Positions 3,205 to 34,994 of a stretch of 46,716 bases of DNA are shown here, one piece after another; the first letter of the stretch is position 1; each line of letters opens with the position of its first letter. Under the pieces are notes generated by a model. The model saw only the letters and a list, made by a program, of their open reading frames with translations. It did no database searches and was not told the DNA's origin. The translations under genes were made by a program, and so were the position numbers. The DNA is from a phage: NCBI GenBank assembly GCA_018580065.1, contig GCA_018580065.1_4845.1; one strand, 5' to 3'.

Positions 3205-3542
3205 GTCACCAGTGCGAAATCAGGTGGCTCAGCGCGATTGAACGTATTGCCATAATTAATCACATTCAGAATCTGATTTGCGCCAGCAACCAGCGGGTCA
3301 GCTTCTGTCACCGTGCCAATCATGATGTAGTCGCCAGTCTTAGCACCAACATACTCAGTCCAGAACGTATTCTTCTGCACAATCTCATTGCCTTTCGCAT
3401 CGGTAGATACATCATCGTTAAAACCATAATCGCACATGATGCTCACTGGCTCATCAAAAGTCGGCTTGCCGTACTTGTCGGTTCCGGTCTTGTGCCAGAT
3501 AGTGCATGGCTGCGTGTAAGAAAACCGAGAGATTGAGGTCAT
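3201..3542 (-). CDS. head-tail joining / head closure protein (by position)
   Basis: 113 aa ORF in connector operon. Confidence 0.35.
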   Translation of the reverse strand: MTSISRFSYTQPCTIWHKTGTDKYGKPTFDEPVSIMCDYGFNDDVSTDAKGNEIVQKNTFWTEYVGAKTGDYIMIGTVTEADPLVAGANQILNVINYGNTFNRAEPPDFALVT

Positions 3543-4150
3543 AAAACATTCCTATATGAACGATTTTTCTTGATGTGCTGGATAGCACCTTTAGACACGC
3601 CAAACTCATCAGCAAGTGATTGTGAGTGCTCTCCATTTGCTAGTCTGGTTCTCACCTCCCTAACCTGATCATCAGTTAATTTAGCGTGTTTTGGAGTCCT
3701 GCCGAACATTGGGTTTTTCTCGCCAATTCTTGATTGCGATATTTTCTTTCTTGTTTCTTCTGTTTTTGGACCCATAGAGCAAGGTGGTGTTTTCCCATAC
3801 CAGCAGTTATTCTTTCCCATCCTGCTTTTGCTCATTTTAGCTTTAGCCACATCTGTTGCCTGAACCCCCAAGCACGTACCAGCTATTTTTGCCACATTAT
3901 ATTGAGGACTTAGCTTGTCTATGTAGAATTGCTCTCTACTAAGCAGGATTGATTCATCGTTAACAATTTCAAGAATTGAAAATCTGAATAATGACTCGCC
4001 ATATTTTGCTCCATCATTATACAACCTGTGTGGGCTGTGCATGCCATTCCTCATTTTGTATCGATGCACAGCAATTCTATTGGTGTAGCTTATTGTTGAA
4101 CCAACATAAATCTCTTTAGTTATTGTATTTTCAATCTGATATACAGCCAT
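3539..4150 (-). CDS. GIY-YIG homing endonuclease (Seg/I-TevI-like)
   Basis: N-terminal VYQIEN...KEIYVGST (GIY...YIG) motif, NUMOD3-like repeats (KMSKSRMGKNN, ISQSRIGEKNPMFG), C-terminal HTH-like; ORF track begins 4168, MAVYQ start at 4150. Confidence 0.75.
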   Translation of the reverse strand: MAVYQIENTITKEIYVGSTISYTNRIAVHRYKMRNGMHSPHRLYNDGAKYGESLFRFSILEIVNDESILLSREQFYIDKLSPQYNVAKIAGTCLGVQATDVAKAKMSKSRMGKNNCWYGKTPPCSMGPKTEETRKKISQSRIGEKNPMFGRTPKHAKLTDDQVREVRTRLANGEHSQSLADEFGVSKGAIQHIKKNRSYRNVL

Positions 4151-4158
4151 CACTCTCT

Positions 4159-4551
4159 TCATTTGCACTTACTCCCACGAACAACCGCAAACCACGGTTT
4201 ACCGCTTCCGTCAGGGTCTTCCACTAAATCGCCAGTGCATCCGGCTGTATCCAGTAGCTTCATCTGATTGTACAGTGCCACCCACGGCTTGCTACCATAC
4301 GCGAATGATTGTGATGCGCCAGAAGGTGCGCTCTGCCTGGTGACGTAGCGCCCTGCGGTATTTGCGCTAATCAGGATGGAAGCCCACAGCATGATCGCAT
4401 TTTGTCGGCATTCATCATTTGGATAGTTCAGTTCAAGGCATTCGCTGATTGATGACACAAGGCACAGAATGCCAGACGCATCTGTCGTGGTGATGGTCAT
4501 CCCGCGCGACGCCATCTGACTGACCAGTTCTTCAGGTGTTGGTGCTGCCAT
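4159..4551 (-). CDS. hypothetical protein, possible head-tail connector component
   Basis: ORF track 142 aa from TTG; ATG at 4551 with GGGAG RBS. Confidence 0.35.
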   Translation of the reverse strand: MAAPTPEELVSQMASRGMTITTTDASGILCLVSSISECLELNYPNDECRQNAIMLWASILISANTAGRYVTRQSAPSGASQSFAYGSKPWVALYNQMKLLDTAGCTGDLVEDPDGSGKPWFAVVRGSKCK

Positions 4552-4816
4552 TTCTTTTCGACTCCCGTACCTTCCACCACATTTCAAACAGGTTCTTTAT
4601 TACCAGAGACAGAGCGCCGAGGATTGACGCTACTGCCGCCCACTCTGTCAGGCTGTGTGGAATCATAGCCTCAAAATAAGATTGCGTGACAGGTGCTTGT
4701 TCTGCAACTTTCAGACCGATACCGGTGCCAATAGAAGCGTATCCTGCCTTGTCAATCACCTGTCCTGTCGTTCCGCTTATAATCTGCTCTGCGACTTGCC
4801 TTAGTGTCCCGTTCAT
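4532..4816 (-). CDS. hypothetical protein with C-terminal hydrophobic helix
   Basis: ORF track 94 aa, ATG start. Confidence 0.4.
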   Translation of the reverse strand: MNGTLRQVAEQIISGTTGQVIDKAGYASIGTGIGLKVAEQAPVTQSYFEAMIPHSLTEWAAVASILGALSLVIKNLFEMWWKVRESKRNGSTNT

Positions 4817-4848
4817 TGCGTGTCTCGCTGATGATATGTTTCCAGCAC

Positions 4849-5289
4849 TTATAGATTTGAATCAGCGAAAAAACAATGGCGACCACGCCAAGAATAATGT
4901 CCAATTTCGCCGCCCCATTTAAAAGTGATGGAAAGGATGAACAGATGGATGCCGATAATAATAAATGCGTACTGCACATGAAGCGGCGTTTCTACAGGCG
5001 TGATAAATTCCCATACGAATGACTCTATCGCAACCAGCCATTCGTAAAGGCTCATCGTCAGCACGCAAAGCGCCATCTTTGTACTTTTGCGCAGCGCAAT
5101 AGCCGGAAACAACCAGACCATAGACTGCGCAAGGTAATACAGATATTCGGCGGGAAATGAATCAACAAGCACCCATCCAAGATACACAGACATCACCATT
5201 GCCGGAATGAACACCAGAAACGCGAACATGCCTGTGCAGGCAAAACCCAGCACATACATGATCATGATGGTAACATCTGCGCCGAACAT
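4849..5289 (-). CDS. polytopic membrane protein (about 4 TM helices)
   Basis: ORF track 146 aa, hydrophobic segments throughout. Confidence 0.5.
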   Translation of the reverse strand: MFGADVTIMIMYVLGFACTGMFAFLVFIPAMVMSVYLGWVLVDSFPAEYLYYLAQSMVWLFPAIALRKSTKMALCVLTMSLYEWLVAIESFVWEFITPVETPLHVQYAFIIIGIHLFILSITFKWGGEIGHYSWRGRHCFFADSNL

Positions 5290-5291
5290 TA

Positions 5292-5411
5292 TTTTTTACC
5301 GCGTGATGGTGAGCGGGTGGAGCCGTTTGGTTTCACTGCGCCAGTTTTGCCGCCGGTTTTGGTGTTACCAGTAGCGCGTGAACGAGACGGACCGTTTGTT
5401 GAACCCATGTT
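5292..5411 (-). CDS. small basic protein (39 aa)
   Basis: AGGAG RBS 7 nt before ATG; stop overlaps start of next gene (TAATG); below ORF-track cutoff. Confidence 0.3.
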
Positions 5412-5455
5412 TAAATCTCCTGTTGTTTGATTAGCATGATTTTAGCATATTCCTG

Positions 5456-5484
5456 TTGACGTAGATTGATGGTGTGTTTATAGT
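5456..5484 (+). promoter_or_regulatory. sigma70-like promoter, TTGACG-17nt-TATAGT, with two copies of the GACGTAGA motif
   Basis: TTGACGTAGATT at 5456-5467, TATAGT 5479-5484, second motif copy GTGACGTAGAAA at 5487-5498. Confidence 0.6.
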
Positions 5485-5524
5485 TAGTGACGTAGAAACA
5501 ACAATAAATGTTAGAGGTGATGAA

Positions 5525-5785
5525 ATGTTTGATATTGATAACCCAAGTGATGACAAAGCCAAGCTGATTGATGCGGTCGCTTGCAGTTTCGCATCTTGCC
5601 AGACAGAAGGTGAATATCAGGTTGTGAAAATGTGCATTGTTGAGTTCTTCTCGGCAATCAACATTCCTGATGATGAGGCGGTTGATATTCTGCTGTGTGC
5701 CGCTGGGAGCTCCACTGAGGCGGACGAGTGCATTGATGAACTGGTTGAGGAGTTTGGCGGCATTTTCCAGGGTGATGAGGAGTAA
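5525..5785 (+). CDS. small highly acidic protein, candidate DNA-mimic anti-restriction protein
   Basis: 86 aa from ATG 5525 (RBS AGAGGTGA); very Asp/Glu-rich; first gene after an early-type promoter. Confidence 0.5.
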   Translation: MFDIDNPSDDKAKLIDAVACSFASCQTEGEYQVVKMCIVEFFSAINIPDDEAVDILLCAAGSSTEADECIDELVEEFGGIFQGDEE

Positions 5786-5787
5786 TC

Positions 5788-5979
5788 ATGGCAAACATGT
5801 ACTACTGTATGTTCCGCAATACCGTGATTGATTTTCGTGATTGCGTTGATGCAATTGGTAATGCTGAGTCTATTGACGAGTTCAGCAATTCAGAACACAA
5901 GTCTGCCGAGCGCCTGTACCATCTGGCTAATGAGTACGTCGCATATTACGAGCAATTGTTAGAAGAAAGTGGTGAATGA
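5788..5979 (+). CDS. hypothetical acidic protein
   Basis: ORF track 63 aa. Confidence 0.45.
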   Translation: MANMYYCMFRNTVIDFRDCVDAIGNAESIDEFSNSEHKSAERLYHLANEYVAYYEQLLEESGE

Positions 5980-5980
5980 T

Positions 5981-6790
5981 ATGAAAACACTAAGCAAAAT
6001 CTATTCAGACAAAGAAACACGCAACGGCATCGCTGTTAACAAAACCTATCTCGTGCCAGTGGAGCAAATCTATCTGGAGCCGGGATATAACATCCGTGAA
6101 GCAGATGAGCAGCATGTTGAATATTTTGCGCAGTGCTGGGAGTCCGGCCAGCCATTACCAGCATTAACAGTTATTCCAGACGAGAAGGGAATCCGCATTC
6201 TTGATGGTCAGCATCGCTATCTCGGCGCATTGCGTGCCATTGAGCGCGGAGCACCAATCGTTCGAATTGAGTGCAAGGATTTCACTGGCGACGAGGCGGA
6301 CAAAATCGCCTTCATGGTGTCATCAAGTCAGGGTAAGCAGCTTGACCCGTTTGAGCGCGCAAAGGCTTACACGCGACTGAAAGGCTTCGGCTGGACGAAT
6401 GAAGAAATCGCAAAAAAGGTAGGGCGCTCAGTATCTGACGTGCAAATGCATCTGTCTCTTGGTGATGTTCCGGCGGAAGTAAAAGCGCGAATCAGCGCCG
6501 GGCAAATCAGCTATGCAAATGCCGTAGCAGTAACTCGTGAGCATGGTGACGATGCGGTAAAGGTTATCGACGAGGCGGTCGAGGAAGCCAAAGCGCAAGG
6601 TAAGGATAAGGTCACTGCGAAGGTGCTGAAGTCGAAAAAGATTAAGCCAGTAGACCGTCTGATTGAGTTATTGAAGCCAGCAGACCACGTGATTCTTCCT
6701 GCTGGTCATGTGGTGGCAGAGGATGAGGAATTTATCCAGATTCCTGTTGCTGACATTCACGAGGTTATGGCAATTCTGGAGAAGATGTGA
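5981..6790 (+). CDS. ParB-like nuclease domain protein with C-terminal HTH
   Basis: ILDGQHRYLGALRA motif typical of ParB/Srx N-domain; RBS before ATG 5981. Confidence 0.65.
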   Translation: MKTLSKIYSDKETRNGIAVNKTYLVPVEQIYLEPGYNIREADEQHVEYFAQCWESGQPLPALTVIPDEKGIRILDGQHRYLGALRAIERGAPIVRIECKDFTGDEADKIAFMVSSSQGKQLDPFERAKAYTRLKGFGWTNEEIAKKVGRSVSDVQMHLSLGDVPAEVKARISAGQISYANAVAVTREHGDDAVKVIDEAVEEAKAQGKDKVTAKVLKSKKIKPVDRLIELLKPADHVILPAGHVVAEDEEFIQIPVADIHEVMAILEKM

Positions 6791-7281
6791 TGAACACAAC
6801 TAAAATAAATTGGGGTGATATTTTTCATTATGAAAATGGGGTGCTTAGGTGGAAGCACCAAAAAAGAAAAATGCTAAGTGGCTCTTTAGCTGGGACAATT
6901 GCAAATACAGGATATGTAATCATATGCGTTGATTACAAAAAATTCTTGGCTCACAGAATCATATGGGAGATGTTTAATGGACCAATCCCTGACGGGATGC
7001 AAATTGATCACATTAACCATATTCGTAATGATAACCGCATTGAAAACTTAAGGCTGGTAAGCCATATAGAGAACCATAGAAATCTTAGTAGGCAGAAAAA
7101 TAACAAATCAGGAAGAACTGGCGTTAGCTTTGACAGGAAGAGTGGGTTATGGAGGGCTTATGTATCAAAGATGCATATTGGTTTTTTTGCCAATAAAGAA
7201 GATGCAATATCCGCTAGAGAAAAAGCTGAAACTTCAACTGGGTATCACGAGAATCACGGAGTAAAAAGTGAACGTTTATGA
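6787..7281 (+). CDS. HNH homing endonuclease with AP2-like DNA-binding domain
   Basis: IDHINHIRNDNRIENLRLVSHIENHRN HNH motif; C-terminal GVSFDRKSGLWRAYV AP2-like segment. Confidence 0.8.
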   Translation: MMNTTKINWGDIFHYENGVLRWKHQKRKMLSGSLAGTIANTGYVIICVDYKKFLAHRIIWEMFNGPIPDGMQIDHINHIRNDNRIENLRLVSHIENHRNLSRQKNNKSGRTGVSFDRKSGLWRAYVSKMHIGFFANKEDAISAREKAETSTGYHENHGVKSERL

Positions 7282-13767: not shown

Positions 13768-13814
13768 AATCTACGTCAATAAGTATTGACTATGTGACGT
13801 AGAAACGTCAAGAT
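13768..13814. promoter_or_regulatory. divergent promoter/operator region with inverted GACGTAGA motif pair
   Basis: AATCTACGTCAA (13768-13779) and TGACGTAGAAA (13795-13805) form a dyad; TTGACT -35 at 13786-13791. Confidence 0.45.
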
Positions 13815-16553: not shown

Positions 16554-16584
16554 TTGACGTAGATTGAGCGGTGGTGCATAGTAT
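16554..16584 (+). promoter_or_regulatory. sigma70-like promoter with GACGTAGA dyad
   Basis: TTGACGTAGATT 16554-16565, -10 candidates CATAGT/TAGTAT 16577-16584, inverted copy ATCTACATCA 16583-16592. Confidence 0.5.
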
Positions 16585-16614
16585 CTACATCAAGTGATGA
16601 GTGAGGTGATGAAG

Positions 16615-16998: not shown

Positions 16999-17277
16999 AT
17001 GACAAAACGCGAATTACACCAATTATTTAACAAATGGCTTGATTCTGTTGGTTTTGGCGACATGAATGATAGAGAGAAGGACTTGCTTTGGTTTGGGTTT
17101 TCTGTTGGATATTGCCACGACAATAACAAGACCATGCTCGCAGCACTCCAGCAGCTTCTGGAAATCTACGACGACCATTCAGGAAAAGCCTGGACAACAT
17201 CAAGCAAGCGTCGTGCTCTGGATAATGCGCGCGATGCGGTTAATAAAGCGCTGGGGGAGCGCAATGAAACAATGTGA
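16999..17277 (+). CDS. hypothetical protein
   Basis: ORF track from GTG 16987; ATG at 16999. Confidence 0.45.
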   Translation: MTKRELHQLFNKWLDSVGFGDMNDREKDLLWFGFSVGYCHDNNKTMLAALQQLLEIYDDHSGKAWTTSSKRRALDNARDAVNKALGERNETM

Positions 17278-17749
17278 TCTTTTCCGTGTTCTTAGTTATA
17301 ACCCTGAATCTGGTGAATTCACGTGGATTAAATCAAGAAGACATGGGTTTAGCGGTCGAAAGGCTGGGTCGGTAAATGGGAAAGGGTACATACAGATCTG
17401 CATTGATGGAAAGCTTTATCTTGCGCACAGGCTTGCTCTTCTATACGTGACAGGAGAGATGCCAAAGGAGGTGGATCATATTAACAGGGTGAGAGATGAC
17501 AATAGATTATGCAACTTAAGGCCATGCACTTCATCTGAAAATAAGCACAACAAGGATATCACATCCAGAAACAAAACAGGGATGAAGGGCGTCAGCTGGT
17601 ATCCTGCCGGAAATTCATGGCGAGTAAGGATATGCGTAAATAAAACACAGATTCATCTGGGCTACTACGAAGACATTGAGCTGGCAGAGCTTGTGTCGCA
17701 AGAGGCGAGAATTAAATACGCAGGAGATTTTAATTATGAAGCTTATTGA
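17264..17749 (+). CDS. HNH homing endonuclease with AP2-like domain (second copy)
   Basis: VDHINRVRDDNRLCNLRPCTSSENKHN HNH motif; GVSWYPAGNSWRVRI AP2-like; paralogous to 6787..7281; ORF track begins upstream in-frame at 17066. Confidence 0.8.
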   Translation: MKQCDLFRVLSYNPESGEFTWIKSRRHGFSGRKAGSVNGKGYIQICIDGKLYLAHRLALLYVTGEMPKEVDHINRVRDDNRLCNLRPCTSSENKHNKDITSRNKTGMKGVSWYPAGNSWRVRICVNKTQIHLGYYEDIELAELVSQEARIKYAGDFNYEAY

Positions 17750-18371
17750 TTTACTGGTTAAAGAATTACCTAAGCGTGGCGGGTGGCCTGAGGGTGCCGT
17801 TGAGTGTCAACGATTTGTTGATGAGGCAACCATTGATTTTTACGATGAAAATGGCAACTGGGATGATGACTGCTCACTTACTTACGGCTCGATAGCGGTG
17901 GAACTCGTCAGAAAGCAGACGTACCCTTGCGAGAGCGAGCAAGTAACTCGCAAGCAATACGAATCCGCACTTGCAGCATCTCAAAAGCCAGCATGGAACG
18001 GCGAAGGTCTTCCGCCAGTTGGTGAGAAAGTTGAGTTCTTCATTAATCCAAAACTCGGATACAGAAACGCCTGGAATCCTGATGCTGGCACTGAAATGGA
18101 AGTGGTTGCACACAAGACAACAACGGATGGCAATAATGTGGCAGTTTGTTATTGGGATGAGCGCGGCGCAGGAAGGTCACACTGCTTCGTACCAGAAAGC
18201 CTAAAACCACCACGCTCAGAAGCAGAGCGCAAGCGTCATGAGGCAGCAGAATCCATTGACTTTTATATGCCGGAATTTATTACCGATACGCCAAATGAGT
18301 TTTACCACGCCAAAAAGATTTACGACGCCATCGCGGCAGGTAAGATTCCCGGCGTGAAACTGGAGGATTGA
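17736..18371 (+). CDS. hypothetical protein
   Basis: ORF track from 17676; ATG at 17736 overlaps HNH stop. Confidence 0.45.
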   Translation: MKLIDLLVKELPKRGGWPEGAVECQRFVDEATIDFYDENGNWDDDCSLTYGSIAVELVRKQTYPCESEQVTRKQYESALAASQKPAWNGEGLPPVGEKVEFFINPKLGYRNAWNPDAGTEMEVVAHKTTTDGNNVAVCYWDERGAGRSHCFVPESLKPPRSEAERKRHEAAESIDFYMPEFITDTPNEFYHAKKIYDAIAAGKIPGVKLED

Positions 18372-18504: not shown

Positions 18505-18533
18505 CAAGCCCTCACTTAGAGGGCTTTTTGTTA
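18505..18533. terminator. bidirectional intrinsic terminator
   Basis: AAGCCCTC-actta-GAGGGCTT with T-run. Confidence 0.7.
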
Positions 18534-19433
18534 TTGCTCTGGTTTTCCTCCGAGCTTTCTAATAATTTCTGCAGCAACGCACGGATCAACATTAAAAAAT
18601 TCAGTCGCCCCATCGAAACCTGACAACCCAGCATTTAAGTCCTTTAGCTTTCTATGCGCAGCGCCTTCCGCTTTCCTTGCTTTGTAATAGCTTTCGAATG
18701 AGAACTGACACAACAAAGATATAGAAAGACCTGATTTTTTAGTTAGTTGCTGAATCCTTAGAGGAACGTTATTTGATAACCCTATCTTTATCATTCCATT
18801 TGCTTCCAACAAATAAACCATAGTCTTTTTGAATGGGTTTCTTCCTGCGCATTTTGCACACCCGTGCCCCTTGGCGTGATGGCCAGCAAACTGGCGAAAA
18901 CTGCCATGAATAGGGCATATTATTTCAACCATGCTATTCATGCCACTAAAAACTACCTCATCATATGAATATTTCCCGCCATGGGCCTCTTTGCATCTTG
19001 CTATGAAGGATTCTGTATCCATGCCGCCCTTTCCACTGCAAACCCTGCACCCAATATTCCCTCTCAAGTGATCTCTTGCTATTTGCTGGAATTCACCATG
19101 TTTTTTGCACCTTATGGTTATCATTGACAGCATTCCAGAGTATTTGGTTGGTGAATAATCATAAATATCATGGTTTTTACTGGGAATCATATCCATAAAC
19201 TCATCATGACTGTACCCGTTATGCATTCCCCTGCCGGGCCTGCACTTTCTGCATCCGTTGCAACCGTTGAGGTGATCATTTGGCGTCTGTTTAAATAACA
19301 CATCATGCTTAATACATCTGATTATTACTGGCGATTTCCTTTTGATGTATTTAGTTTCTGAATAGTCAAATTTATCGCCGTGGATTAACTTAGCGCGTGA
19401 AATGAAATCTTCTGTGGTAGGTCTTTTTGCCAT
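18531..19433 (-). CDS. T5orf172-domain (GIY-YIG-related) protein with three N-terminal Cys-rich repeats; putative homing endonuclease
   Basis: C-terminal VYLLEANGMIKIGLSNN...GATEFFNV; three ~45-aa repeats each ending GCxxC; ATG 19433 (ORF track starts TTG 19517). Confidence 0.6.
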   Translation of the reverse strand: MAKRPTTEDFISRAKLIHGDKFDYSETKYIKRKSPVIIRCIKHDVLFKQTPNDHLNGCNGCRKCRPGRGMHNGYSHDEFMDMIPSKNHDIYDYSPTKYSGMLSMITIRCKKHGEFQQIARDHLRGNIGCRVCSGKGGMDTESFIARCKEAHGGKYSYDEVVFSGMNSMVEIICPIHGSFRQFAGHHAKGHGCAKCAGRNPFKKTMVYLLEANGMIKIGLSNNVPLRIQQLTKKSGLSISLLCQFSFESYYKARKAEGAAHRKLKDLNAGLSGFDGATEFFNVDPCVAAEIIRKLGGKPEQ

Positions 19434-19528
19434 TATTAACCCCGTAGCAGGTTCGTAGATTGAGGATTGCAGCAGGGTGTCTACGTTCACCTTTTCGTCT
19501 GGCCGGACTAGCTGCAATTGAGATTATA

Positions 19529-23530: not shown

Positions 23531-23640
23531 GATGTAGATTATACTATGCGCTCGGTGTAGATTGGTCAAGTGTGGTGATGCAGATTTATCAACAACAATA
23601 ATAAATGTTGACGTAGATATGTTGGTGACGTAGAATCATC
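23531..23640. promoter_or_regulatory. divergent promoter region with five copies of the GAYGTAGAWW motif
   Basis: Minus promoter TTGACC-17-TAGTAT (plus coords 23541-23569); plus promoter TTGACG-17-TAGAAT (23608-23636); motif copies at 23531, 23554, 23577, 23610, 23627. Confidence 0.6.
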
Positions 23641-27942: not shown

Positions 27943-27971
27943 AATCTACATCAGTTGTGATTCTACGTCAA
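27943..27971 (-). promoter_or_regulatory. sigma70-like early promoter, TTGACG-17nt-TAGATT
   Basis: Minus strand TTGACGTAGAAT...GATGTAGATT; both elements are copies of the recurring motif. Confidence 0.6.
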
Positions 27972-27984
27972 CATGCAGAGAAAG

Positions 27985-28135
27985 AAAAAGCACTACCAAA
28001 TGTTAGTTAATGCTAGCCAACATATATAGTTACATATATTACTAATAGTAACCTTTGTTTATTACCTCTATAAAGTATATTAAGATCTTCTTTATATTTA
28101 TTGTAGATATTAATACCTTACGCTACAGAAACACG
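27985..28135. other. AT-rich block with dyad symmetries (candidate DNA unwinding element)
   Basis: Visibly AT-rich, non-coding, next to iteron array; contains TTGTAGATAT motif copy. Confidence 0.4.
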
Positions 28136-28165
28136 AAAACCAGCAGTTAAGCTGGTTATTTTTTA
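28136..28165 (+). terminator. hairpin with T-run inside the non-coding origin-like region
   Basis: AAAACCAGC-agttaa-GCTGGTT followed by ATTTTTTAG. Confidence 0.4.
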
Positions 28166-28185
28166 GTGGTTTTTAGTGTTTTTTG

Positions 28186-28414
28186 GCTTCCCGCGCTTCC
28201 CTGAATTCCCTGGAAGCATTTTTTTCTTTGTTTTCAGTAGCTTCTGAGTGTTTTTTGTATCGCTTCCCGCCTCCCAAGAAAATAATTTTTGAATTTTAAA
28301 ACTCTCAATTTTTTTCGAAAATCTTCCCGGGAAGCGGGAAGTTGGGAAGCGACGACTTAAATAATTGATTTTCCTGTATTTTCGCTTCCCAAGCTGTTTT
28401 GGTTTTTTGGAAGC
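28186..28414. repeat. iteron-like array of GCTTCCC / GGGAAGC heptamers (candidate replication origin)
   Basis: At least 8 copies in both orientations, including CTTCCCGGGAAGCGGGAAGTTGGGAAGC; located just upstream of the replication module. Confidence 0.55.
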
Positions 28415-28581
28415 AAAGCTATTGAAAATAAAAGAAAAATTACCCCTCTGGTAAGCGTTATACTCCTGTTGGAGTGTGCTGTCAACCAGCCGCACGGAAC
28501 AAAGATCATCCCCGTGTAAATGTGTTTGACTAGCTTCCTTTTTCCCTTTATTCTTTTTTTTATCAAACAAGAAGTGGAGAA

Positions 28582-28809
28582 ATGGCGATGAGCAAAGAAT
28601 ACCGATTTGGCAGTGCGATTGGCGAGGTCTGGGATTTTGTGCGTGATATGTTGGTTGGTGATCGTAAGGAGTTTAAATTTGATGAGTTTACCGCTAATGA
28701 AGGATTAAGGGGATTCAGAGTGAACCTTCATAAGGTTGCAGTGCGGAACGGATGGATGTTTAAAACGCGAGCTAAGGAGGGTGGCTTGTGGGTAAAACGG
28801 ATTAAGTGA
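28582..28809 (+). CDS. hypothetical protein
   Basis: ORF track 75 aa; TTGACT-17-TATTCT promoter-like sequence and GGAG RBS upstream. Confidence 0.5.
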   Translation: MAMSKEYRFGSAIGEVWDFVRDMLVGDRKEFKFDEFTANEGLRGFRVNLHKVAVRNGWMFKTRAKEGGLWVKRIK

Positions 28810-28820
28810 GGTGTTTGGAT

Positions 28821-29243
28821 ATGAAAAGGTACTACATTGAGGCAATTGGGGCTGATGGTAAAAAGTTATATGCCAGCGGTAGATGTGGTTTTCTGCATGA
28901 TTTTACCTATGCGAAGTTTTTCAAAACAATAGAGGAGGCTGAGGGGTATATGGCGTGGCGGAAGCCTCATCTCCCATGTGAAATAAAATGCAAGGAGCAA
29001 AGGGTAAAAAAACGGTCTGCGTCTCAGGTGGAACAAAAAACGACAATGGAGGGAGAAGCTAGAAACTTCGTCTACCGCCTTGGTTTGGATAAGGGAAAGC
29101 ATTTTGTGTTTGATGATTTTAAGTTGATAAAGAGCATTGATCAGTTGAGAACTTCCCTTGACAGGGTGGGTAAGAAGCTGCAAAAAAAATTCAGTGTCAA
29201 TATGGTTGCGCGTAATACCGCTTATGTGGTGAGGGTTAAATGA
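28821..29243 (+). CDS. hypothetical protein
   Basis: ATG 28821 with GTGAGGTG RBS (ORF track from 28806). Confidence 0.45.
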   Translation: MKRYYIEAIGADGKKLYASGRCGFLHDFTYAKFFKTIEEAEGYMAWRKPHLPCEIKCKEQRVKKRSASQVEQKTTMEGEARNFVYRLGLDKGKHFVFDDFKLIKSIDQLRTSLDRVGKKLQKKFSVNMVARNTAYVVRVK

Positions 29244-31573
29244 TGATTGGTTATGAAGATTACCGCAAATGTGGCTTCCCTATTATTGGAATCCATGCGA
29301 TGGATATCGACCGAAATTGCACATGCGGTGATCCAGAGTGCAATGCTGCCGGTAAGCATCCGGTTATGAGCAACTGGCAGCTTGGAGTTATATGGGCTGA
29401 TGACCAGATTGAAAATATGGCTGAATATGGTCAGTTGCAGTCATTCGGTGTCCTTGTGAATGGTTATCTGGTCGTTGATATTGACCCACGCAACGGAGGT
29501 AATGATGGATATGAATCGCTTTGTGATGCCTTAGACGTAGAGCTTGCTGACGAAGCTGGTTTTACGGTCAAGACTGGTGGTGGTGGTCGCCACATCTATT
29601 ACAAACTTCCTGAAGGAATAAAGCTGCGCTCTCATGACAGAAGATTTAATGGTATTGACTTTAAATCATCTGGTTTTGTTGTTGGATGTGGTTCTTTTCA
29701 TAAAACTGGAAACTTTTATGAGGCCGAGCATGGATCCCCTTCAGAGATAACTGAATGTCCATCTGAACTTATTGAGCTTTTGTTGCGTCCTGAGAGAACG
29801 GAAGACGAGGTTTTCACGCTTGATAGTAAAAATTACAGCATTGCCGAAATGGAGGATATGCTCAAATACATCAAAGATGGTGATGAGTATGACCCATGGC
29901 TTCATGTAGGTATGGCTATCCACGAAGCTACAGAAGGCAATGGTTTTGAGCTTTGGGATAGATGGTCATCGCAGTTCAGCAAATACAGAGCTGAAGAGAT
30001 GGACGCAAAATGGCATTCCTTTGGAAAGGACGGCGTTAGCGAAAAGATAACAGAAGCAACGCTGGTTTATCTCGCGCAAGAGGGGGGGTGGGTAAGGCAA
30101 GTAACTTTTGAGGCTACGCCAGAGGAAATTGAGAAACTTGAGTCTTTCGAACGAGAGATGGCAATGGGTGTTGGTGAATGCCCTGTAGAGTACAAAAGTG
30201 TTGATGTCCGTTATCCGCCTGGATTTGTTGGTCGCCTTGCGGCGTGGATTAATAAGAACTGTGCAGAGAAGCGAGAGAATATTGCAGCACTTGCCGCATT
30301 GCATGCCGCATCCATGATTTGCGGTGCGTCATCTGATATTTACCTTACAAACAGGAAGGCTTTACCAAACCTTTTTGCTGTTGGTATCGCTGGTTCAGGT
30401 TCAGGTAAGGGTGATGTCCTTGCTGCGCTACAAAAGATAATTGATTGCTCAGGATTGAGTAAGACAGTTGCCGGTAAGATACGCTCAGAGCGTGCGATAT
30501 ATGAAGGTCTTTGCGCTAACCAGATGTTTAATATCATCATGGATGAGATTGGGATAAAACTTGGGAGTGTTGTTGGTCAGAAAGTAAGCGAGTACAACAT
30601 GGCAACCGCTGGTGCGATCATGGAGGCTTACACGTCAGAAGTTCTTTATTGTGACCAGCGGGTTACTGAGGATTTCATTAAGTCTTTTGAAAAAAGAAAG
30701 GCTATGCTGTTGATGGCTATTGAGGAAAATGAAATACAGGCAGACCCCGTTGACATTAAGTGTCAGTTTGATGATGTGATAAACAGAATTGACGGAGCTA
30801 TAAGGAATCCATTTTTTTCAATCTTTGGTGTATCTACTGATGATCAGTTTAAGCGCCTTATTACAGAAGAAAACATTAAGTCAGGCCTTATGGGTCGCGC
30901 AATGATTATGCAGGAGTTACAGGAGATTGCTGATGAAAACGAAAACGTAAACTACTGTGATCTACCTATGGATATGCAACTGACCATAAAAACAATAATA
31001 AATGGCGGAACGGCTGGGCACAAAAACTGGACAGACTCAATAATCAGTCAAAAAGAAAGACGGATTATAAAAGCCACGCCTGAAGTTTCTCAGCTCGCCA
31101 AGGAGTTCTTCTCATGGATTAAAACCGTTGCAAGAAAGCATGTAGAAAATGGTACTGGTTATCACCCATTGATAAACAGATGCGCCGTGAAGGTGGCAAA
31201 GATTGCTGGAATTCTCGCGTGCGATACTGGCGTCATAACCATGGAGCACTTGAGATATGCGGTAGCATTAACAATTAAATCAACAAGCGATCTGATGATG
31301 CGTGCCGACAGTATCGCCGGAGCGAAGTCTAAAGCTATGGAAGAGAGAATTGAAGGCATTTTCTCCATGGTTAAAGAATATGTGAAGCGAGGAATGACCA
31401 AAACAGCAATGGTTAGAGGGGTGGCAAAAGAAGGTGGTTATAAACGTGCTGATGTCGAGAGGTGCGTAGAGAAGTTGTTATCAGATGGTGTTATTTGCAT
31501 TGATGAAAATGCAAAAAGAACATCTCACAACGTAATAATTTACAAATTAACAAATGATGAGGTTGAGATATGA
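29240..31573 (+). CDS. bifunctional DNA primase-polymerase with helicase-like C-terminal domain
   Basis: Prim-pol motifs VVDIDPRNGG and GGGRHIYY, PriCT-like DPWLHVGMAIHEA, Walker A GIAGSGSGKG. Confidence 0.8.
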   Translation: MMIGYEDYRKCGFPIIGIHAMDIDRNCTCGDPECNAAGKHPVMSNWQLGVIWADDQIENMAEYGQLQSFGVLVNGYLVVDIDPRNGGNDGYESLCDALDVELADEAGFTVKTGGGGRHIYYKLPEGIKLRSHDRRFNGIDFKSSGFVVGCGSFHKTGNFYEAEHGSPSEITECPSELIELLLRPERTEDEVFTLDSKNYSIAEMEDMLKYIKDGDEYDPWLHVGMAIHEATEGNGFELWDRWSSQFSKYRAEEMDAKWHSFGKDGVSEKITEATLVYLAQEGGWVRQVTFEATPEEIEKLESFEREMAMGVGECPVEYKSVDVRYPPGFVGRLAAWINKNCAEKRENIAALAALHAASMICGASSDIYLTNRKALPNLFAVGIAGSGSGKGDVLAALQKIIDCSGLSKTVAGKIRSERAIYEGLCANQMFNIIMDEIGIKLGSVVGQKVSEYNMATAGAIMEAYTSEVLYCDQRVTEDFIKSFEKRKAMLLMAIEENEIQADPVDIKCQFDDVINRIDGAIRNPFFSIFGVSTDDQFKRLITEENIKSGLMGRAMIMQELQEIADENENVNYCDLPMDMQLTIKTIINGGTAGHKNWTDSIISQKERRIIKATPEVSQLAKEFFSWIKTVARKHVENGTGYHPLINRCAVKVAKIAGILACDTGVITMEHLRYAVALTIKSTSDLMMRADSIAGAKSKAMEERIEGIFSMVKEYVKRGMTKTAMVRGVAKEGGYKRADVERCVEKLLSDGVICIDENAKRTSHNVIIYKLTNDEVEI

Positions 31574-32763: not shown

Positions 32764-32792
32764 AAAAGCCCGCAAACGCGGGATTTATTATT
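32764..32792. terminator. bidirectional intrinsic terminator
   Basis: AGCCCGC-aaac-GCGGGAT followed by TTATTATTT. Confidence 0.65.
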
Positions 32793-33030
32793 TAACAATC
32801 CATTTTGTAACGGCTGGCCTTAAATCTTCCTTTCTGAAAACGCCACCAGTAAGTCTCTCGGCATCAATTGCTGCTGTAGCGCTAATTCTTCCTCTTGACA
32901 CCCACTGATTGACAGCCTGTTTTGACACACCAAGAAACCTTGCCAGTTGTGATTGCCCTCCAACATAATCAATCAGCTCTGACAGCTTCGTCTGTTCCAT
33001 TTCTCTTATCTGTTCTGCGATGCTTTTCAT
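32788..33030 (-). CDS. XRE-family (Cro/CI-type) HTH transcriptional regulator
   Basis: SQLARFLGVSKQAVNQWVSRG helix-turn-helix; lone minus-strand gene with its own TTGACG-17-CATTAT promoter. Confidence 0.6.
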   Translation of the reverse strand: MKSIAEQIREMEQTKLSELIDYVGGQSQLARFLGVSKQAVNQWVSRGRISATAAIDAERLTGGVFRKEDLRPAVTKWIVK

Positions 33031-33059
33031 GTGTTTACCTCTGCTATCTGTATGCAGCA

Positions 33060-33088
33060 ATAATGAACTCAAAAAAAATTTTCGTCAA
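33060..33088 (-). promoter_or_regulatory. sigma70-like promoter for the HTH regulator
   Basis: Minus-strand TTGACG (plus 33083-33088), 17-nt spacer, CATTAT (plus 33060-33065). Confidence 0.5.
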
Positions 33089-33164
33089 GGTATTGTGTTT
33101 ACCATCACGTTGACGTATCTTTAAGTCACACCAGCGATATGCTGAGTTAAATCGAGGGGACACT

Positions 33165-34007
33165 ATGAGCTTATCAATGATTCAAAAACCAAAACCAGCA
33201 GCGCCAATCATAACATTGGTTGGTACTCCAGGTGTAGGCAAGACAACTCTTGCGGCGCTATTCCCAAACCCAGTGTTTATTCAGGCTGAAGAGATCACTG
33301 GTGTTTTTGATGACTGGGATGATGAAAAGAAACCTGATTCATTTCCTGTTCTGAAGCGCGCTGACGTTAAACGCAAAACAAGCACAAAGGATGATTTGCT
33401 GTCACAGCTACGCGCATTAATTACTGAGGAACATAATTACAAAACGCTTGTAATTGACTCAATCACAAGCCTGCATTCAATGTTTGAGCATGAGGTTTGT
33501 GAAAATTACGGTGTTGACAACGTAGGTTCTGCGGCTGGTGGTTACAACAAAGGATATATTGTTGTTTCTGAAATGCACGCTGAAATAATAAATGCATGTA
33601 AGTATCTTCGCAAAGAAAAAGGGATGAGCATTATTTATCTTGCACACGCAGGTGTTAAAAAGATGAAGAATCGCCCTGATGCTGATGAATACACTGTTTA
33701 CACACTTGACATGCATGACGCTTCAGTTTCTGGTTATGTGAATCTGAGTGATGCTGTTATTTACATCAGGAATGAGGAGTTCGTGAAAGGAACTGAGACT
33801 GATAAGAAAGGTCAGGTGACCAAGTTTGGAAAGGTTGTTCAGACTGGTCAGCGAGTTCTTATCACCTCTGGTGATGGTCGGGTTGGGTATGTTAATGCAA
33901 AAAACAGATATAACCTTGAACCTGAAATTCCTTTTGAAAAAGGTGAGAATCCACTTTTGAGTGAGATTAAATATTATGCATCTCTACGAGATAACCAAAC
34001 AGCTTAA
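33165..34007 (+). CDS. Sak4-like RecA-fold recombination ATPase
   Basis: Walker A LVGTPGVGKTT near N-terminus; size and neighbourhood match phage Sak4-type proteins. Confidence 0.65.
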   Translation: MSLSMIQKPKPAAPIITLVGTPGVGKTTLAALFPNPVFIQAEEITGVFDDWDDEKKPDSFPVLKRADVKRKTSTKDDLLSQLRALITEEHNYKTLVIDSITSLHSMFEHEVCENYGVDNVGSAAGGYNKGYIVVSEMHAEIINACKYLRKEKGMSIIYLAHAGVKKMKNRPDADEYTVYTLDMHDASVSGYVNLSDAVIYIRNEEFVKGTETDKKGQVTKFGKVVQTGQRVLITSGDGRVGYVNAKNRYNLEPEIPFEKGENPLLSEIKYYASLRDNQTA

Positions 34008-34455
34008 TGAACTGCTGGCGATGGAGGATATTCCACGGGAGCAGATTGAAGATACCATAAATCTTATTGAAGAGGAGTTTGAAGGAAAGGCTGAAATGGT
34101 TGCTGCTTACATTCGTGAGCTTGAAGCTGATGATGCCGGACTTAAGTCCGAGATTGACCGTCTTTCTGAGCGTAAGCGTGTTTTAGTTGCGAAGATTGAT
34201 AACCTTAAAGATTATCTTCGTCAAAACATGATGGCGTCAGGAAAGACAGATATCAAAGGTAAGTTGTTCAGTATCACTCTTGGCAAACCGTCACCAGTTC
34301 TTGATGTGTTTGTCCCTGTTGAGCAGCTTCCTGAGCAGTACCGGGTTGTGAAAGTGTCGGCAGATAACGCAGCAATTAAAAATGCGATAAAAGCCGGGAT
34401 TGAAATTAATGGTTGTGCCATCACCGACGGCAAACCAAAACTGATCATCAAATAA
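33976..34455 (+). CDS. Gp157-like protein (tentative)
   Basis: Coiled-coil N-terminus; adjacent to Sak4-like gene; ATG 33976 (ORF track from GTG 33961). Confidence 0.4.
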   Translation: MHLYEITKQLNELLAMEDIPREQIEDTINLIEEEFEGKAEMVAAYIRELEADDAGLKSEIDRLSERKRVLVAKIDNLKDYLRQNMMASGKTDIKGKLFSITLGKPSPVLDVFVPVEQLPEQYRVVKVSADNAAIKNAIKAGIEINGCAITDGKPKLIIK

Positions 34456-34472
34456 ATCGAGAGGACACAAAA

Positions 34473-34994
34473 ATGGGTTTCTGGAATCTTTCTGACGGTA
34501 AAGCTGTTGAGTCTAAATCTGAATTTGAACTGGGTGGTGGTTTCGAAGTAATTCCTGATGGCAGCCGTGTTCTTGCTGCCGTTGAAGAATGTAAAGACGA
34601 TCAGTGGGAAGGTGAGCGATTCTTCAATCTTAAGTGGCGAATCCTTGAGGGTGATTATAAAAATCGCATCATCTTCCAGAAGCTGAAAGTATTTAGCTCA
34701 AAAGAAAAGCAGCGCGACAATGCTATCACTATGCTTGCAGCAATTGACGCAAACGCCGGTGGCAAGCTGATGGCTTCAGGTAAAGAGCCGACTGATTTTG
34801 CTATTGCTAGTGCGCTTGCAAATCGCCCAATGATTCTTCTTCTTCGCGTTTGGGAGTCTGAGGATAAGCAAAAAACTGGTAACTATGTGGCTGGTGTTTT
34901 CAGTCGTCAACAGACAAAAGCATCACCTACTACTAAGCAATCAGCGCCGTCTAACGAGCCGCCGATGGACTTTGACTCTGACGTGCCGTTTTAA
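34473..34994 (+). CDS. putative ssDNA-binding protein with E. coli SSB-like C-terminal tip
   Basis: C-terminus SAPSNEPPMDFDSDVPF nearly identical to E. coli SSB tip PSNEPPMDFDDDIPF; N-terminal domain does not look like a canonical OB-fold SSB. Confidence 0.55.
   Translation: MGFWNLSDGKAVESKSEFELGGGFEVIPDGSRVLAAVEECKDDQWEGERFFNLKWRILEGDYKNRIIFQKLKVFSSKEKQRDNAITMLAAIDANAGGKLMASGKEPTDFAIASALANRPMILLLRVWESEDKQKTGNYVAGVFSRQQTKASPTTKQSAPSNEPPMDFDSDVPF

Follow-up and report, generated by a model that had tools for sequence, protein, structure and literature searches.

A Cro-family protein as a likely local regulator at a divergent promoter pair in the replication module of an Sf11-type virulent phage

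Introduction

The closest described relatives of the protein analysed here are the all-alpha Cro proteins of lambdoid phages, namely those of Xfaso-1 (3bd1), N15 (2hin, 6on0) and P22 (1rzs), together with YdaS of CP-933P (8c7k), all of which belong to the same family (PF15943/PF14549). The likeness extends to the helical fold, with a helix-turn-helix (HTH) in helices 2-3 and a W-x-x-RGR-I/V motif, to the small single-domain architecture and to the position of the gene, which is the first one downstream of a divergent promoter region. Cro proteins characterised so far are, to our knowledge, repressors. In lambdoid phages Cro itself favours lytic growth (PMC6649833).

The locus described here lies in a stretch of phage DNA of 46,716 nucleotides (assembly GCA_018580065.1, contig GCA_018580065.1_4845.1; hereafter the window) and differs from the lambdoid systems in several respects. 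Its divergent partner is an operon headed by a Sak4 recombinase gene instead of cI, the genome is that of a virulent phage, no set of three OR-type operators was recognised in the control region, and a lysogeny module is absent. The protein, which is 38-39% identical to Xfaso-1 Cro, also has an N-terminal extension of about 15 residues, which makes helix 1 longer.

From Sf11 gp06, its orthologue, Sa179lw 'cro' and YX3973 gp14 the protein shows essentially no difference (94-98% identity, and 92-99% for the relatives overall), and these phages (Cedarrivervirus, Buchananvirus and relatives) agree with the window in the lone convergent layout, in the terminator and in the control region. The sister-genome genes are already annotated as 'transcriptional repressor', 'lambda repressor-like' or 'cro', and the novelty of the gene as such is therefore low. 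What is mildly new is only the deep conservation of a layout in which Sak4 diverges from a Cro-primase unit, and the inversion that lies behind the lone gene.

Results

The product is a small Cro-family protein

The gene and its ribosome-binding site are placed as follows.

32788-33030, minus strand: Cro/YdaS-family HTH regulator gene, 80 aa (ATG at 33030, stop codon 32790-32788)
33038-33042, minus strand: ribosome-binding site AGAGG, 7 nt upstream of the ATG, read from the sequence

The mechanically called open reading frame ends at 32788 on the minus strand and starts at a TTG at 33072 (94 aa). The true start is almost certainly the ATG at 33030, because it is preceded by the AGAGG ribosome-binding site, because the TTG would place the start codon ahead of the -10 element predicted for the gene itself and because a length of 79-81 aa is shared by nearly all of 53 homologues. 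Relatives have GGAGG or AGGAG at the place equivalent to the ribosome-binding site. The first-pass annotation had given the interval as 32788-33110; the gene is real, but the right edge takes in the 5' leader and the promoter, which are non-coding. Within the clade that has the lone layout, dN/dS of cro is 0.08 against Sf11 and 0.04 against Sa179lw, which indicates strong purifying selection.

The best Pfam match is YdaS_toxin (PF15943; E 9.6e-18, 64.2 bits against a cutoff of 30), followed by P22_Cro (PF14549; E 1.6e-11, 44.2 bits against 30.2), while the XRE model proper, HTH_3 (PF01381), stays below its cutoff (20.0 bits against 23). We take the Cro protein to be related to HTH_3 only through the wider HTH superfamily, as grouped in the Pfam clans. 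The earlier description as an XRE-family, Cro/CI-type HTH protein is thus right at the superfamily level, and only there as regards 'XRE'; the more precise name is Cro/YdaS. Among PHROGs, the protein matches phrog_35, 'transcriptional repressor' (E 2.3e-18), and weakly the CII-like activators of phrog_101 (E 0.0015). A profile built from 16 homologues found Xfaso-1 Cro (3bd1) in the PDB at 1.1e-12, and also P22 Cro, N15 Cro and YdaS.

The AlphaFold2 model (pLDDT 94) has five helices (residues 4-23, 26-33, 37-46, 51-61 and 67-70) in an all-alpha, lambda-repressor-like fold with a helix-turn-helix. Its best Foldseek match is again Xfaso-1 Cro 3bd1 (target-normalised TM 0.85, rmsd 1.7 Å, 39% identity), followed by DNA-bound N15 Cro, YdaS and P22 Cro. 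The recognition helix and the RGRISA motif that follows it are largely invariant among the 16 homologues, and the extra N-terminal stretch, residues 1-15, is conserved within the phage group. By sequence profile and predicted structure, then, the product is an ordinary small DNA-binding regulator of the Cro family.

The name of the top Pfam family, and the presence of the YdaS structure 8c7k among the fold matches, would also suit a YdaS-type toxin or an antitoxin-like module. We regard this as highly improbable: a YdaT-like or other partner gene is absent, the transcript is predicted to be monocistronic here and the gene is joined to the Prim-Pol primase in relatives, and YdaS is itself, structurally, a Cro.

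The genome carries no lysogeny functions

A blastn comparison shows the window to be a complete genome of Sf11 type, circularly permuted, with ends (1 and 46715) that join at Sf11 positions 18232 and 18230; the cro region is about 96% identical to that of Shigella phage Sf11 (Cedarrivervirus). There is no integrase, CI-type repressor, partition pair, excision gene or plasmid-prophage maintenance gene among the 82 annotated Sf11 features. A Pfam search of 20 further open reading frames, picked mainly from the larger window segments without an Sf11 match, gave homing endonucleases, head, terminase and tailspike proteins and Lar, and found no integrase and no excision or plasmid-prophage maintenance gene. 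The genome holds a single Cro homologue, and its divergent neighbour is the Sak4-like (AAA_24) gene, not cI.

The relevance of this inventory is seen in Sa179lw, which behaved as lytic in biological tests, was predicted to be 'lysogenic' by DeepPL, and was labelled 'questionable' and dropped from a biocontrol cocktail over its 'lysogenic gene cro' (PMC11521287). That verdict, the annotation of the relatives' gene as 'cro' or 'lambda repressor-like' and the 42% identity to the cro of the temperate phage D3 could be taken to mean that cro is related to lysogeny, as a remnant or an active part of an immunity switch in a phage with temperate potential. Such a role is extremely doubtful given a permuted genome in which, over the Sf11 annotation and the 20 scanned reading frames, integrase, CI-type repressor, partition pair and excision module are all missing, a divergent partner that is Sak4 and the lytic outcome of the Sa179lw tests; the lytic bias of lambdoid Cro, cited above, points the same way. 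A group of related Klebsiella phages has also been described as virulent (PMC11769527).

About 280 phage records contain distant homologues of the protein (31-43% identity). T1-like phages are regarded as virulent, and we take most of these records to belong to them, which also speaks against lysogeny. The first-pass annotation had noted the lack of an integrase and had preferred a lytic-cycle regulator to a lysogeny repressor; both points are borne out. In a genome without integrase, CI-type repressor or any other lysogeny function, a role in regulating lytic growth is much likelier than one as a lysogeny repressor, and cro is not a lysogeny gene.

The lone antisense layout derives from an inversion of the primase block

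Two neighbouring genes define the setting of cro.

33165-34007, plus strand: Sak4-like (AAA_24) gene, head of the divergent recombination/replication operon (from the open reading frames and Sf11 RefSeq)
29240-31573, plus strand: Prim-Pol/helicase primase, inverted and here convergent with cro

The divergent operon runs Sak4, Gam-like, SSB, DUF3268 and helicase; on the Sak4 side of relatives the Pfam families AAA_24 and Sipho_Gp157 are found. That cro is the only minus-strand gene between 28582 and 37743, as first noted from the letters alone, agrees with Sf11 RefSeq, in which gp06 is the sole minus-strand gene among gp01-gp12; all other minus-strand open reading frames in this part of the window sit inside plus-strand genes. 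Sa179lw, gmqsjt-1 and YX3973 have the layout of the window. In Pseudoalteromonas phage C7 (51% identity) the gene is also alone and convergent with the primase.

Most relatives are arranged differently. In a blastn comparison with Klebsiella phage VLCpiS13c, positions 29273-31312 of the window match in reverse and 32787-34919 forward; as collinearity begins at 32787, the inversion breakpoint lies exactly at the cro stop codon. In VLCpiS13c and in all metagenomic contigs from more distant homologues, cro heads an operon in which the Prim-Pol primase comes directly next. The cro stop and primase start codons often overlap in these co-directional relatives, and the Sak4-Gam-SSB-helicase operon diverges from cro. 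VLCpiS13c and many metagenomic relatives thus share with the window an orthologous protein (62-83% identity), the control region and the Sak4 operon, and differ in that their primase follows cro in the same direction and is translationally coupled to it, whereas that of the window is monocistronic with its own terminator.

Among 29 IMG/VR loci, the primase is convergent with cro in seven (92-100% Cro identity, the clade of the window) and co-directional downstream of it in 20 (40-74% Cro identity). A substantial divergent Sak4 match is present in 25 of the 29, or 26 if a 41-residue match at a contig end is counted; in the remaining loci the contig is cut off or has no Sak4 match. Every metagenomic contig of sufficient length also has Sak4 divergent from cro. 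Defined from context, the module has Cro divergent from the Sak4 operon across a control region of 130-145 bp, and that of the window is 134 bp long.

From this comparison, the ancestral state is an operon in which cro was followed by the Prim-Pol primase, and the lone layout is the derived product of a rearrangement: cro looks alone and antisense because the primase block was inverted at its stop codon. The embedded antisense position that had been pointed out is therefore real but derived, and the cro-primase operon of most relatives had been missed. The fact that cro stayed with the promoter region when the primase was inverted is in keeping with a function bound to that stretch of DNA.

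The association with primases reaches further. In the two T1-like phages inspected, the homologue precedes an unrelated DnaG-type primase gene and diverges from a helicase gene. These proteins (Jk06 JK_73 and gp30 of the Webervirus Alina), named 'transcriptional regulator', have a homologous N-terminal domain (31-43% identity, E 1e-5 to 8e-4) and are likewise encoded by the first gene of the primase operon; unlike the protein of the window they are 133-157 aa long with a C-terminal extension, and in addition to the different primase they have a very short intergenic region. In IME207 and Bas78, which have no cro, a lone minus-strand gene for a DnaG-type primase occupies the slot after the ASCH gene.

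A persistent primase linkage of this kind, with cro translationally coupled or adjacent to Prim-Pol in most relatives and its homologues next to an unrelated primase in T1-like phages, would be explained if the protein acted in replication itself, for instance as an origin-binding or primase-accessory factor, and a putative iteron cluster does lie by the primase operon (28186-28390). We consider this quite unlikely, however, as the inversion left cro beside the promoter region instead of carrying it along with the primase, and as the fold is a plain Cro DNA-binding domain with one additional N-terminal helical stretch. The GGGAAGC iterons were also rejected as a Cro target, being absent from Sa179lw, whose Cro recognition helix is identical.

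Two predicted divergent promoters and a predicted bidirectional terminator frame the gene

33060-33088, minus strand: P_cro, -35 TTGACG (33088-33083), 17-nt spacer, -10 CATTAT (33065-33060), from a consensus scan
33093-33121, plus strand: P_sak4, -35 TTGTGT (33093-33098), 17-nt spacer, -10 TATCTT (33116-33121), the best site by position weight matrix (PWM)
32769-32782, both strands: bidirectional intrinsic terminator, CCCGC-loop-GCGGG, with T-runs on both strands, from a terminator scan

The consensus scan of the control region found TTGACG-17-CATTAT on the minus strand and no match on the plus strand. Consensus promoter matches overall are not enriched over shuffled sequence (21 found against 22.1 expected), and support for the two promoters therefore rests on conservation of position. 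To this end the control regions of eight diverged clades were aligned (alignment A1) and sigma-70 sites scored by PWM. For the cro direction, the end of the top site is 25-31 nt upstream of the cro ATG in most clades; for the L009/L010 clade the distance is 40 nt. The best site in the Sak4 direction lies at the same position in every one of the eight clades; in the six clades with the same leader as the window, the end of its -10 element is 41-43 nt from the Sak4 ATG, and its hexamers are kept while the spacer columns vary.

In relatives P_sak4 reads TTGACC-17-TATCTT. The -35 element in the clade of the window, TTGTGT or TTGCGT, scores 8.3-8.7 as against 12.2 for TTGACC. Transcription would start near 33053 from P_cro and near 33128 from P_sak4. 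The predicted -35 elements are 4 bp apart and face away from each other, which, with their conserved positions, supports the back-to-back promoters proposed in the first-pass annotation. Another hexamer, TTGACG at 33110-33115, was rejected as the Sak4 -35 element: it lies in the P_sak4 spacer, has no -10 element at 16-18 nt and is not preserved in relatives.

The control region as a whole appears constrained, as it differs by about 8% between the window and Sa179lw (manual count, alignment A3), against 51% of the cro synonymous sites. At the other end of the gene, the hairpin lies between the ASCH gene and cro, where it would end both the convergent primase-ASCH operon and cro. Its stem is conserved and its loop variable in five relatives, so that by pattern it behaves like a genuine bidirectional terminator; with such a terminator at its end, cro would be monocistronic.

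Candidate operators in the control region

33070-33084, unstranded: A/T tract and quasi-palindrome CAAAAAAAATTTTCG in the P_cro spacer, candidate Cro operator and/or UP element
33120-33151, unstranded: extended dyad TTTAAGTCA-N14-TGAGTTAAA over the Sak4 transcript start and leader, second candidate operator

The first of these lies about 51 bp upstream of the predicted P_sak4 start. Its T-run columns are invariant across clades in alignment A1, and C-AAAA-N-TTTT-G dyads stand at its position in four to six clades. In the most distant clade (L043/L046) the equivalent place is taken by a perfect 18-bp palindrome, TTTAAAATATATTTTAAA, which is borderline significant (equalled or exceeded in 13-14 of 300 shuffles). 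In the control region of the window, the same kind of test found no palindrome above chance, CAAAAAAAATTTTCG and the 33120-33151 dyad included, and the A/T tract could be only a UP element or a curved-DNA spacer. A survey of inverted and direct repeats in the control region and of dyads across the eight clades likewise gave no repeated operator-type palindrome above chance in the window.

The arms of the second candidate match at 8 of 9 positions and resemble the P22 operator half-site TTTAAG, and their spacing is unfit for a single dimer; it is a weakly supported candidate. Its inner dyad, CAGC-N5-GCTG (33133-33145), is kept in relatives. An RNA hairpin formed by CAGC-N5/6-GCTG in the Sak4 leader was considered and rejected (RNAalifold -1.6 kcal/mol, without real covariation). 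The TGTGTTTACC direct repeat (33030-39 and 33094-103) was set aside as well, being absent beyond the closest relatives and either a chance occurrence or lineage-specific.

A partial 'evolutionary code' for Cro recognition gives A at +5 and G at +6 for Ala-H3 and Gln-H6 (PMC6649833). No 16-18-bp site of the corresponding AG-N4-CT type was seen by eye in the control region. Words of the control region recur elsewhere in the genome at chance level, with no sign of a wider regulon, which fits a purely local role.

The recurring motif belongs to a promoter family probably independent of Cro

The first-pass annotation had named the protein as a natural candidate binder of a motif that recurs in the genome, GACGTAGA. 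This motif proved to be the 3' part of a promoter family, TTGACGTAGA. The exact 10-mer occurs five times in the window against 0.09 expected, while GACGTAGA with at most one mismatch is not enriched (28 found, 20.4 expected). Every copy of TTGACGTAGA is the -35 element of a good predicted promoter with a -10 element 17 nt downstream, and each is accompanied by a second GAYGTAGA copy 17-31 bp away, in direct or inverted orientation (5456/5489, 13770/13796, 16554/16584, 23608/23627 and 27971/27952).

Such paired copies at promoters, so far above expectation, resemble the sites of a regulator; Cro is among the few DNA-binding proteins encoded, and a near copy, TTGACGTATC, lies inside the cro control region (33110-33119). 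One might thus see in Cro a global regulator which binds GACGTAGA and controls the motif-bearing promoters throughout the genome. The comparison of four genomes, one of them without cro, makes this very improbable. Exact copies of TTGACGTAGA number five in Sf11, five in VLCpiS13c and four in IME207, where the promoters stand at positions homologous to those in the window but where no cro homologue was found (best tblastn E 3.6). None of the relatives compared has an exact copy of the motif between cro and Sak4, and the near copy is replaced by CTGTCGTATC in the Klebsiella-phage clade. Copies in either orientation and at variable spacing are also ill-suited to one HTH dimer, and better candidates are annotated: ParB/KorB-like proteins in Sf11, VLCpiS13c and IME207, a MarR-family regulator in VLCpiS13c and IME207, and the winged-helix protein gp46 in Sf11. 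The proposed link to the motif accordingly finds no support, since a phage that keeps the motif without cro, together with the lack of the motif at cro, indicates that Cro is unneeded for it and unlikely to bind it.

Discussion

The gene order, the protein family and the conserved promoter pair lead us to propose that this Cro-type HTH protein is probably a local transcriptional regulator of the replication and recombination module of a virulent phage, acting at P_cro and P_sak4. DNA binding, the position of the operator and the direction of regulation are what we infer from these features; a literature search found no transcription or binding data for this phage group.

In the proposed mechanism, host sigma-70 RNA polymerase would transcribe cro early from P_cro into a monocistronic mRNA of about 280 nt, stopping at the bidirectional terminator. 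Cro, probably as a dimer, would then bind within the 134-bp control region (33031-33164) that holds both promoters, with the A/T quasi-palindrome inside the P_cro spacer as its leading candidate site, and binding there would shut off P_cro and so make the gene autoregulatory. The same event would determine how strongly or when the divergent Sak4-Gam-SSB-helicase operon is expressed; by default one would expect repression, and activation of P_sak4 from about -51 is a less likely alternative. The weaker P_sak4 of the window, with TTGTGT in place of TTGACC, would also fit activation.

Taken further, that alternative would make Cro mainly an activator, or a bifunctional switch that recruits RNA polymerase to P_sak4 while blocking its own promoter, by analogy with lambda CI at OR2. 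The candidate site is suitably placed, inside the P_cro spacer and upstream of the P_sak4 -35 element, the -35 element is poor in this clade, and the weak phrog_101 match is to CII-like activators. We nevertheless hold this to be unlikely: the Cro proteins that we know to have been characterised repress, relatives with a good -35 element would need no activation, and the site itself is a candidate that does no better than chance in the window.

A broader and rather speculative proposal, to which we give little weight, is that an old, lysogeny-free Cro lineage serves as the built-in and perhaps bifunctional switch of a portable replication module, made up of the Sak4 operon on one side and Cro followed by the primase on the other. 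Such a module may be common to siphophages of enteric hosts and to distant contigs of uncultured viruses, with a partial counterpart in T1-like phages. Through one A/T palindrome in its own promoter spacer, Cro may turn off the cro/primase side and tune or activate the Sak4 side; alternatively, it may couple transcription to the firing of an origin.

Whichever way the protein acts on P_sak4, we argue that the reading of this gene as a 'lysogenic gene' in Sa179lw is a false alarm for this phage group, because no cI, integrase or other lysogeny gene accompanies it, because cro is integral to the replication module and because its distant homologues are widespread in phage records, mostly of phages which we recognise as T1-like and virulent. 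If the broader proposal of a portable module were true, an annotation of 'cro' in these phages would mark control of lytic replication and not temperate potential.

Genome completeness and accessory ORFs

The two ends of the window, positions 1 and 46716, adjoin on the map of the closely similar Shigella phage Sf11, at Sf11 positions 18232 and 18230, and the window is therefore the complete, circularly permuted phage genome rather than a piece of a larger replicon. Four ORFs carry homing-endonuclease-type domains:

3539-4168, minus strand, GIY-YIG plus NUMOD3 ORF
6787-7281, plus strand, HNH_3 ORF
17066-17749, plus strand, HNH_3 ORF
18531-19517, minus strand, T5orf172 ORF

Three of the four (3539-4168, 6787-7281 and 18531-19517) lie wholly or mostly in segments without an Sf11 match and are possible mobile insertions, while the HNH_3 ORF at 17066-17749 is largely within an Sf11-matching segment. 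A segment lacking an Sf11 match also holds the following ORF:

28806-29243, plus strand, 145-aa ORF flanked by the gp1-like gene (28582-28809) and the primase gene

The Sf11 annotation has no gene between gp1 and primase, and the 145-aa product had no match in Pfam. Compared by eye, the C-terminal part of this product is similar to the gp1-like protein, which would suggest a partial duplication of the gp1-like gene.

Non-coding gap before the primase operon

27972-28581, 600-bp non-coding gap 5' of the primase operon, core 28186-28390
approximately 28020-28130, AT-rich stretch inside the gap
28138-28157, bidirectional terminator inside the gap

Genome-wide, there are nine copies of the 7-mers GGGAAGC/GCTTCCC, six of them clustered in a ~200-bp stretch of this gap, its core. 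The region looks like an iteron-type replication origin; the 7-mer cluster is present in Sf11 and absent from the relative Sa179lw and from the Klebsiella-phage clade.

Promoter family and small repeats

A family of promoters shares the extended -35 element TTGACGTAGA, found in five exact copies in the window against 0.09 expected:

5456-5496, promoter
13770-13803, promoter
16554-16591, promoter
23608-23634, promoter
27945-27971, promoter

Each is accompanied at 17-31 bp by a second copy of GAYGTAGA, direct or inverted, and downstream lie runs of small ORFs together with Lar-like and ParB-like genes. The window shares this family with the Klebsiella phage VLCpiS13c and with IME207, a relative lacking cro (the antisense HTH regulator gene). 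Candidates for its binder, if any, are ParB/KorB-like and MarR- or winged-helix-type proteins.

Two small repeats lie in, or at the edge of, the control region between cro and the Sak4-like gene:

33133-33145, dyad CAGC-GATAT-GCTG, ~+5 to +18 from the inferred Sak4 transcription start
33030-33039 and 33094-33103, exact 10-bp direct repeat TGTGTTTACC

The dyad is conserved in relatives with a 6-nt centre, and its arms vary in two clades; an RNA hairpin here was rejected as too weak (-1.6 kcal/mol) and without real covariation. The first TGTGTTTACC copy overlaps the cro start codon and the sequence immediately upstream, the second overlaps the -35 of P_sak4, the inferred Sak4 promoter, and the repeat is conserved only in the closest relatives, with one mismatch.

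The antisense slot in relatives without cro

IME207 (L003) 5227-6180, minus strand, lone DnaG-type primase directly after the ASCH gene
Bas78 (L005) 4474-5460, minus strand, lone DnaG-type primase directly after the ASCH gene

Promoters at this slot diverge from the next operon. Because a minus-strand DnaG-type primase fills the cro slot in both phages, the layout of two plus-strand operons with a single antisense gene between them is conserved, with its content exchanged.
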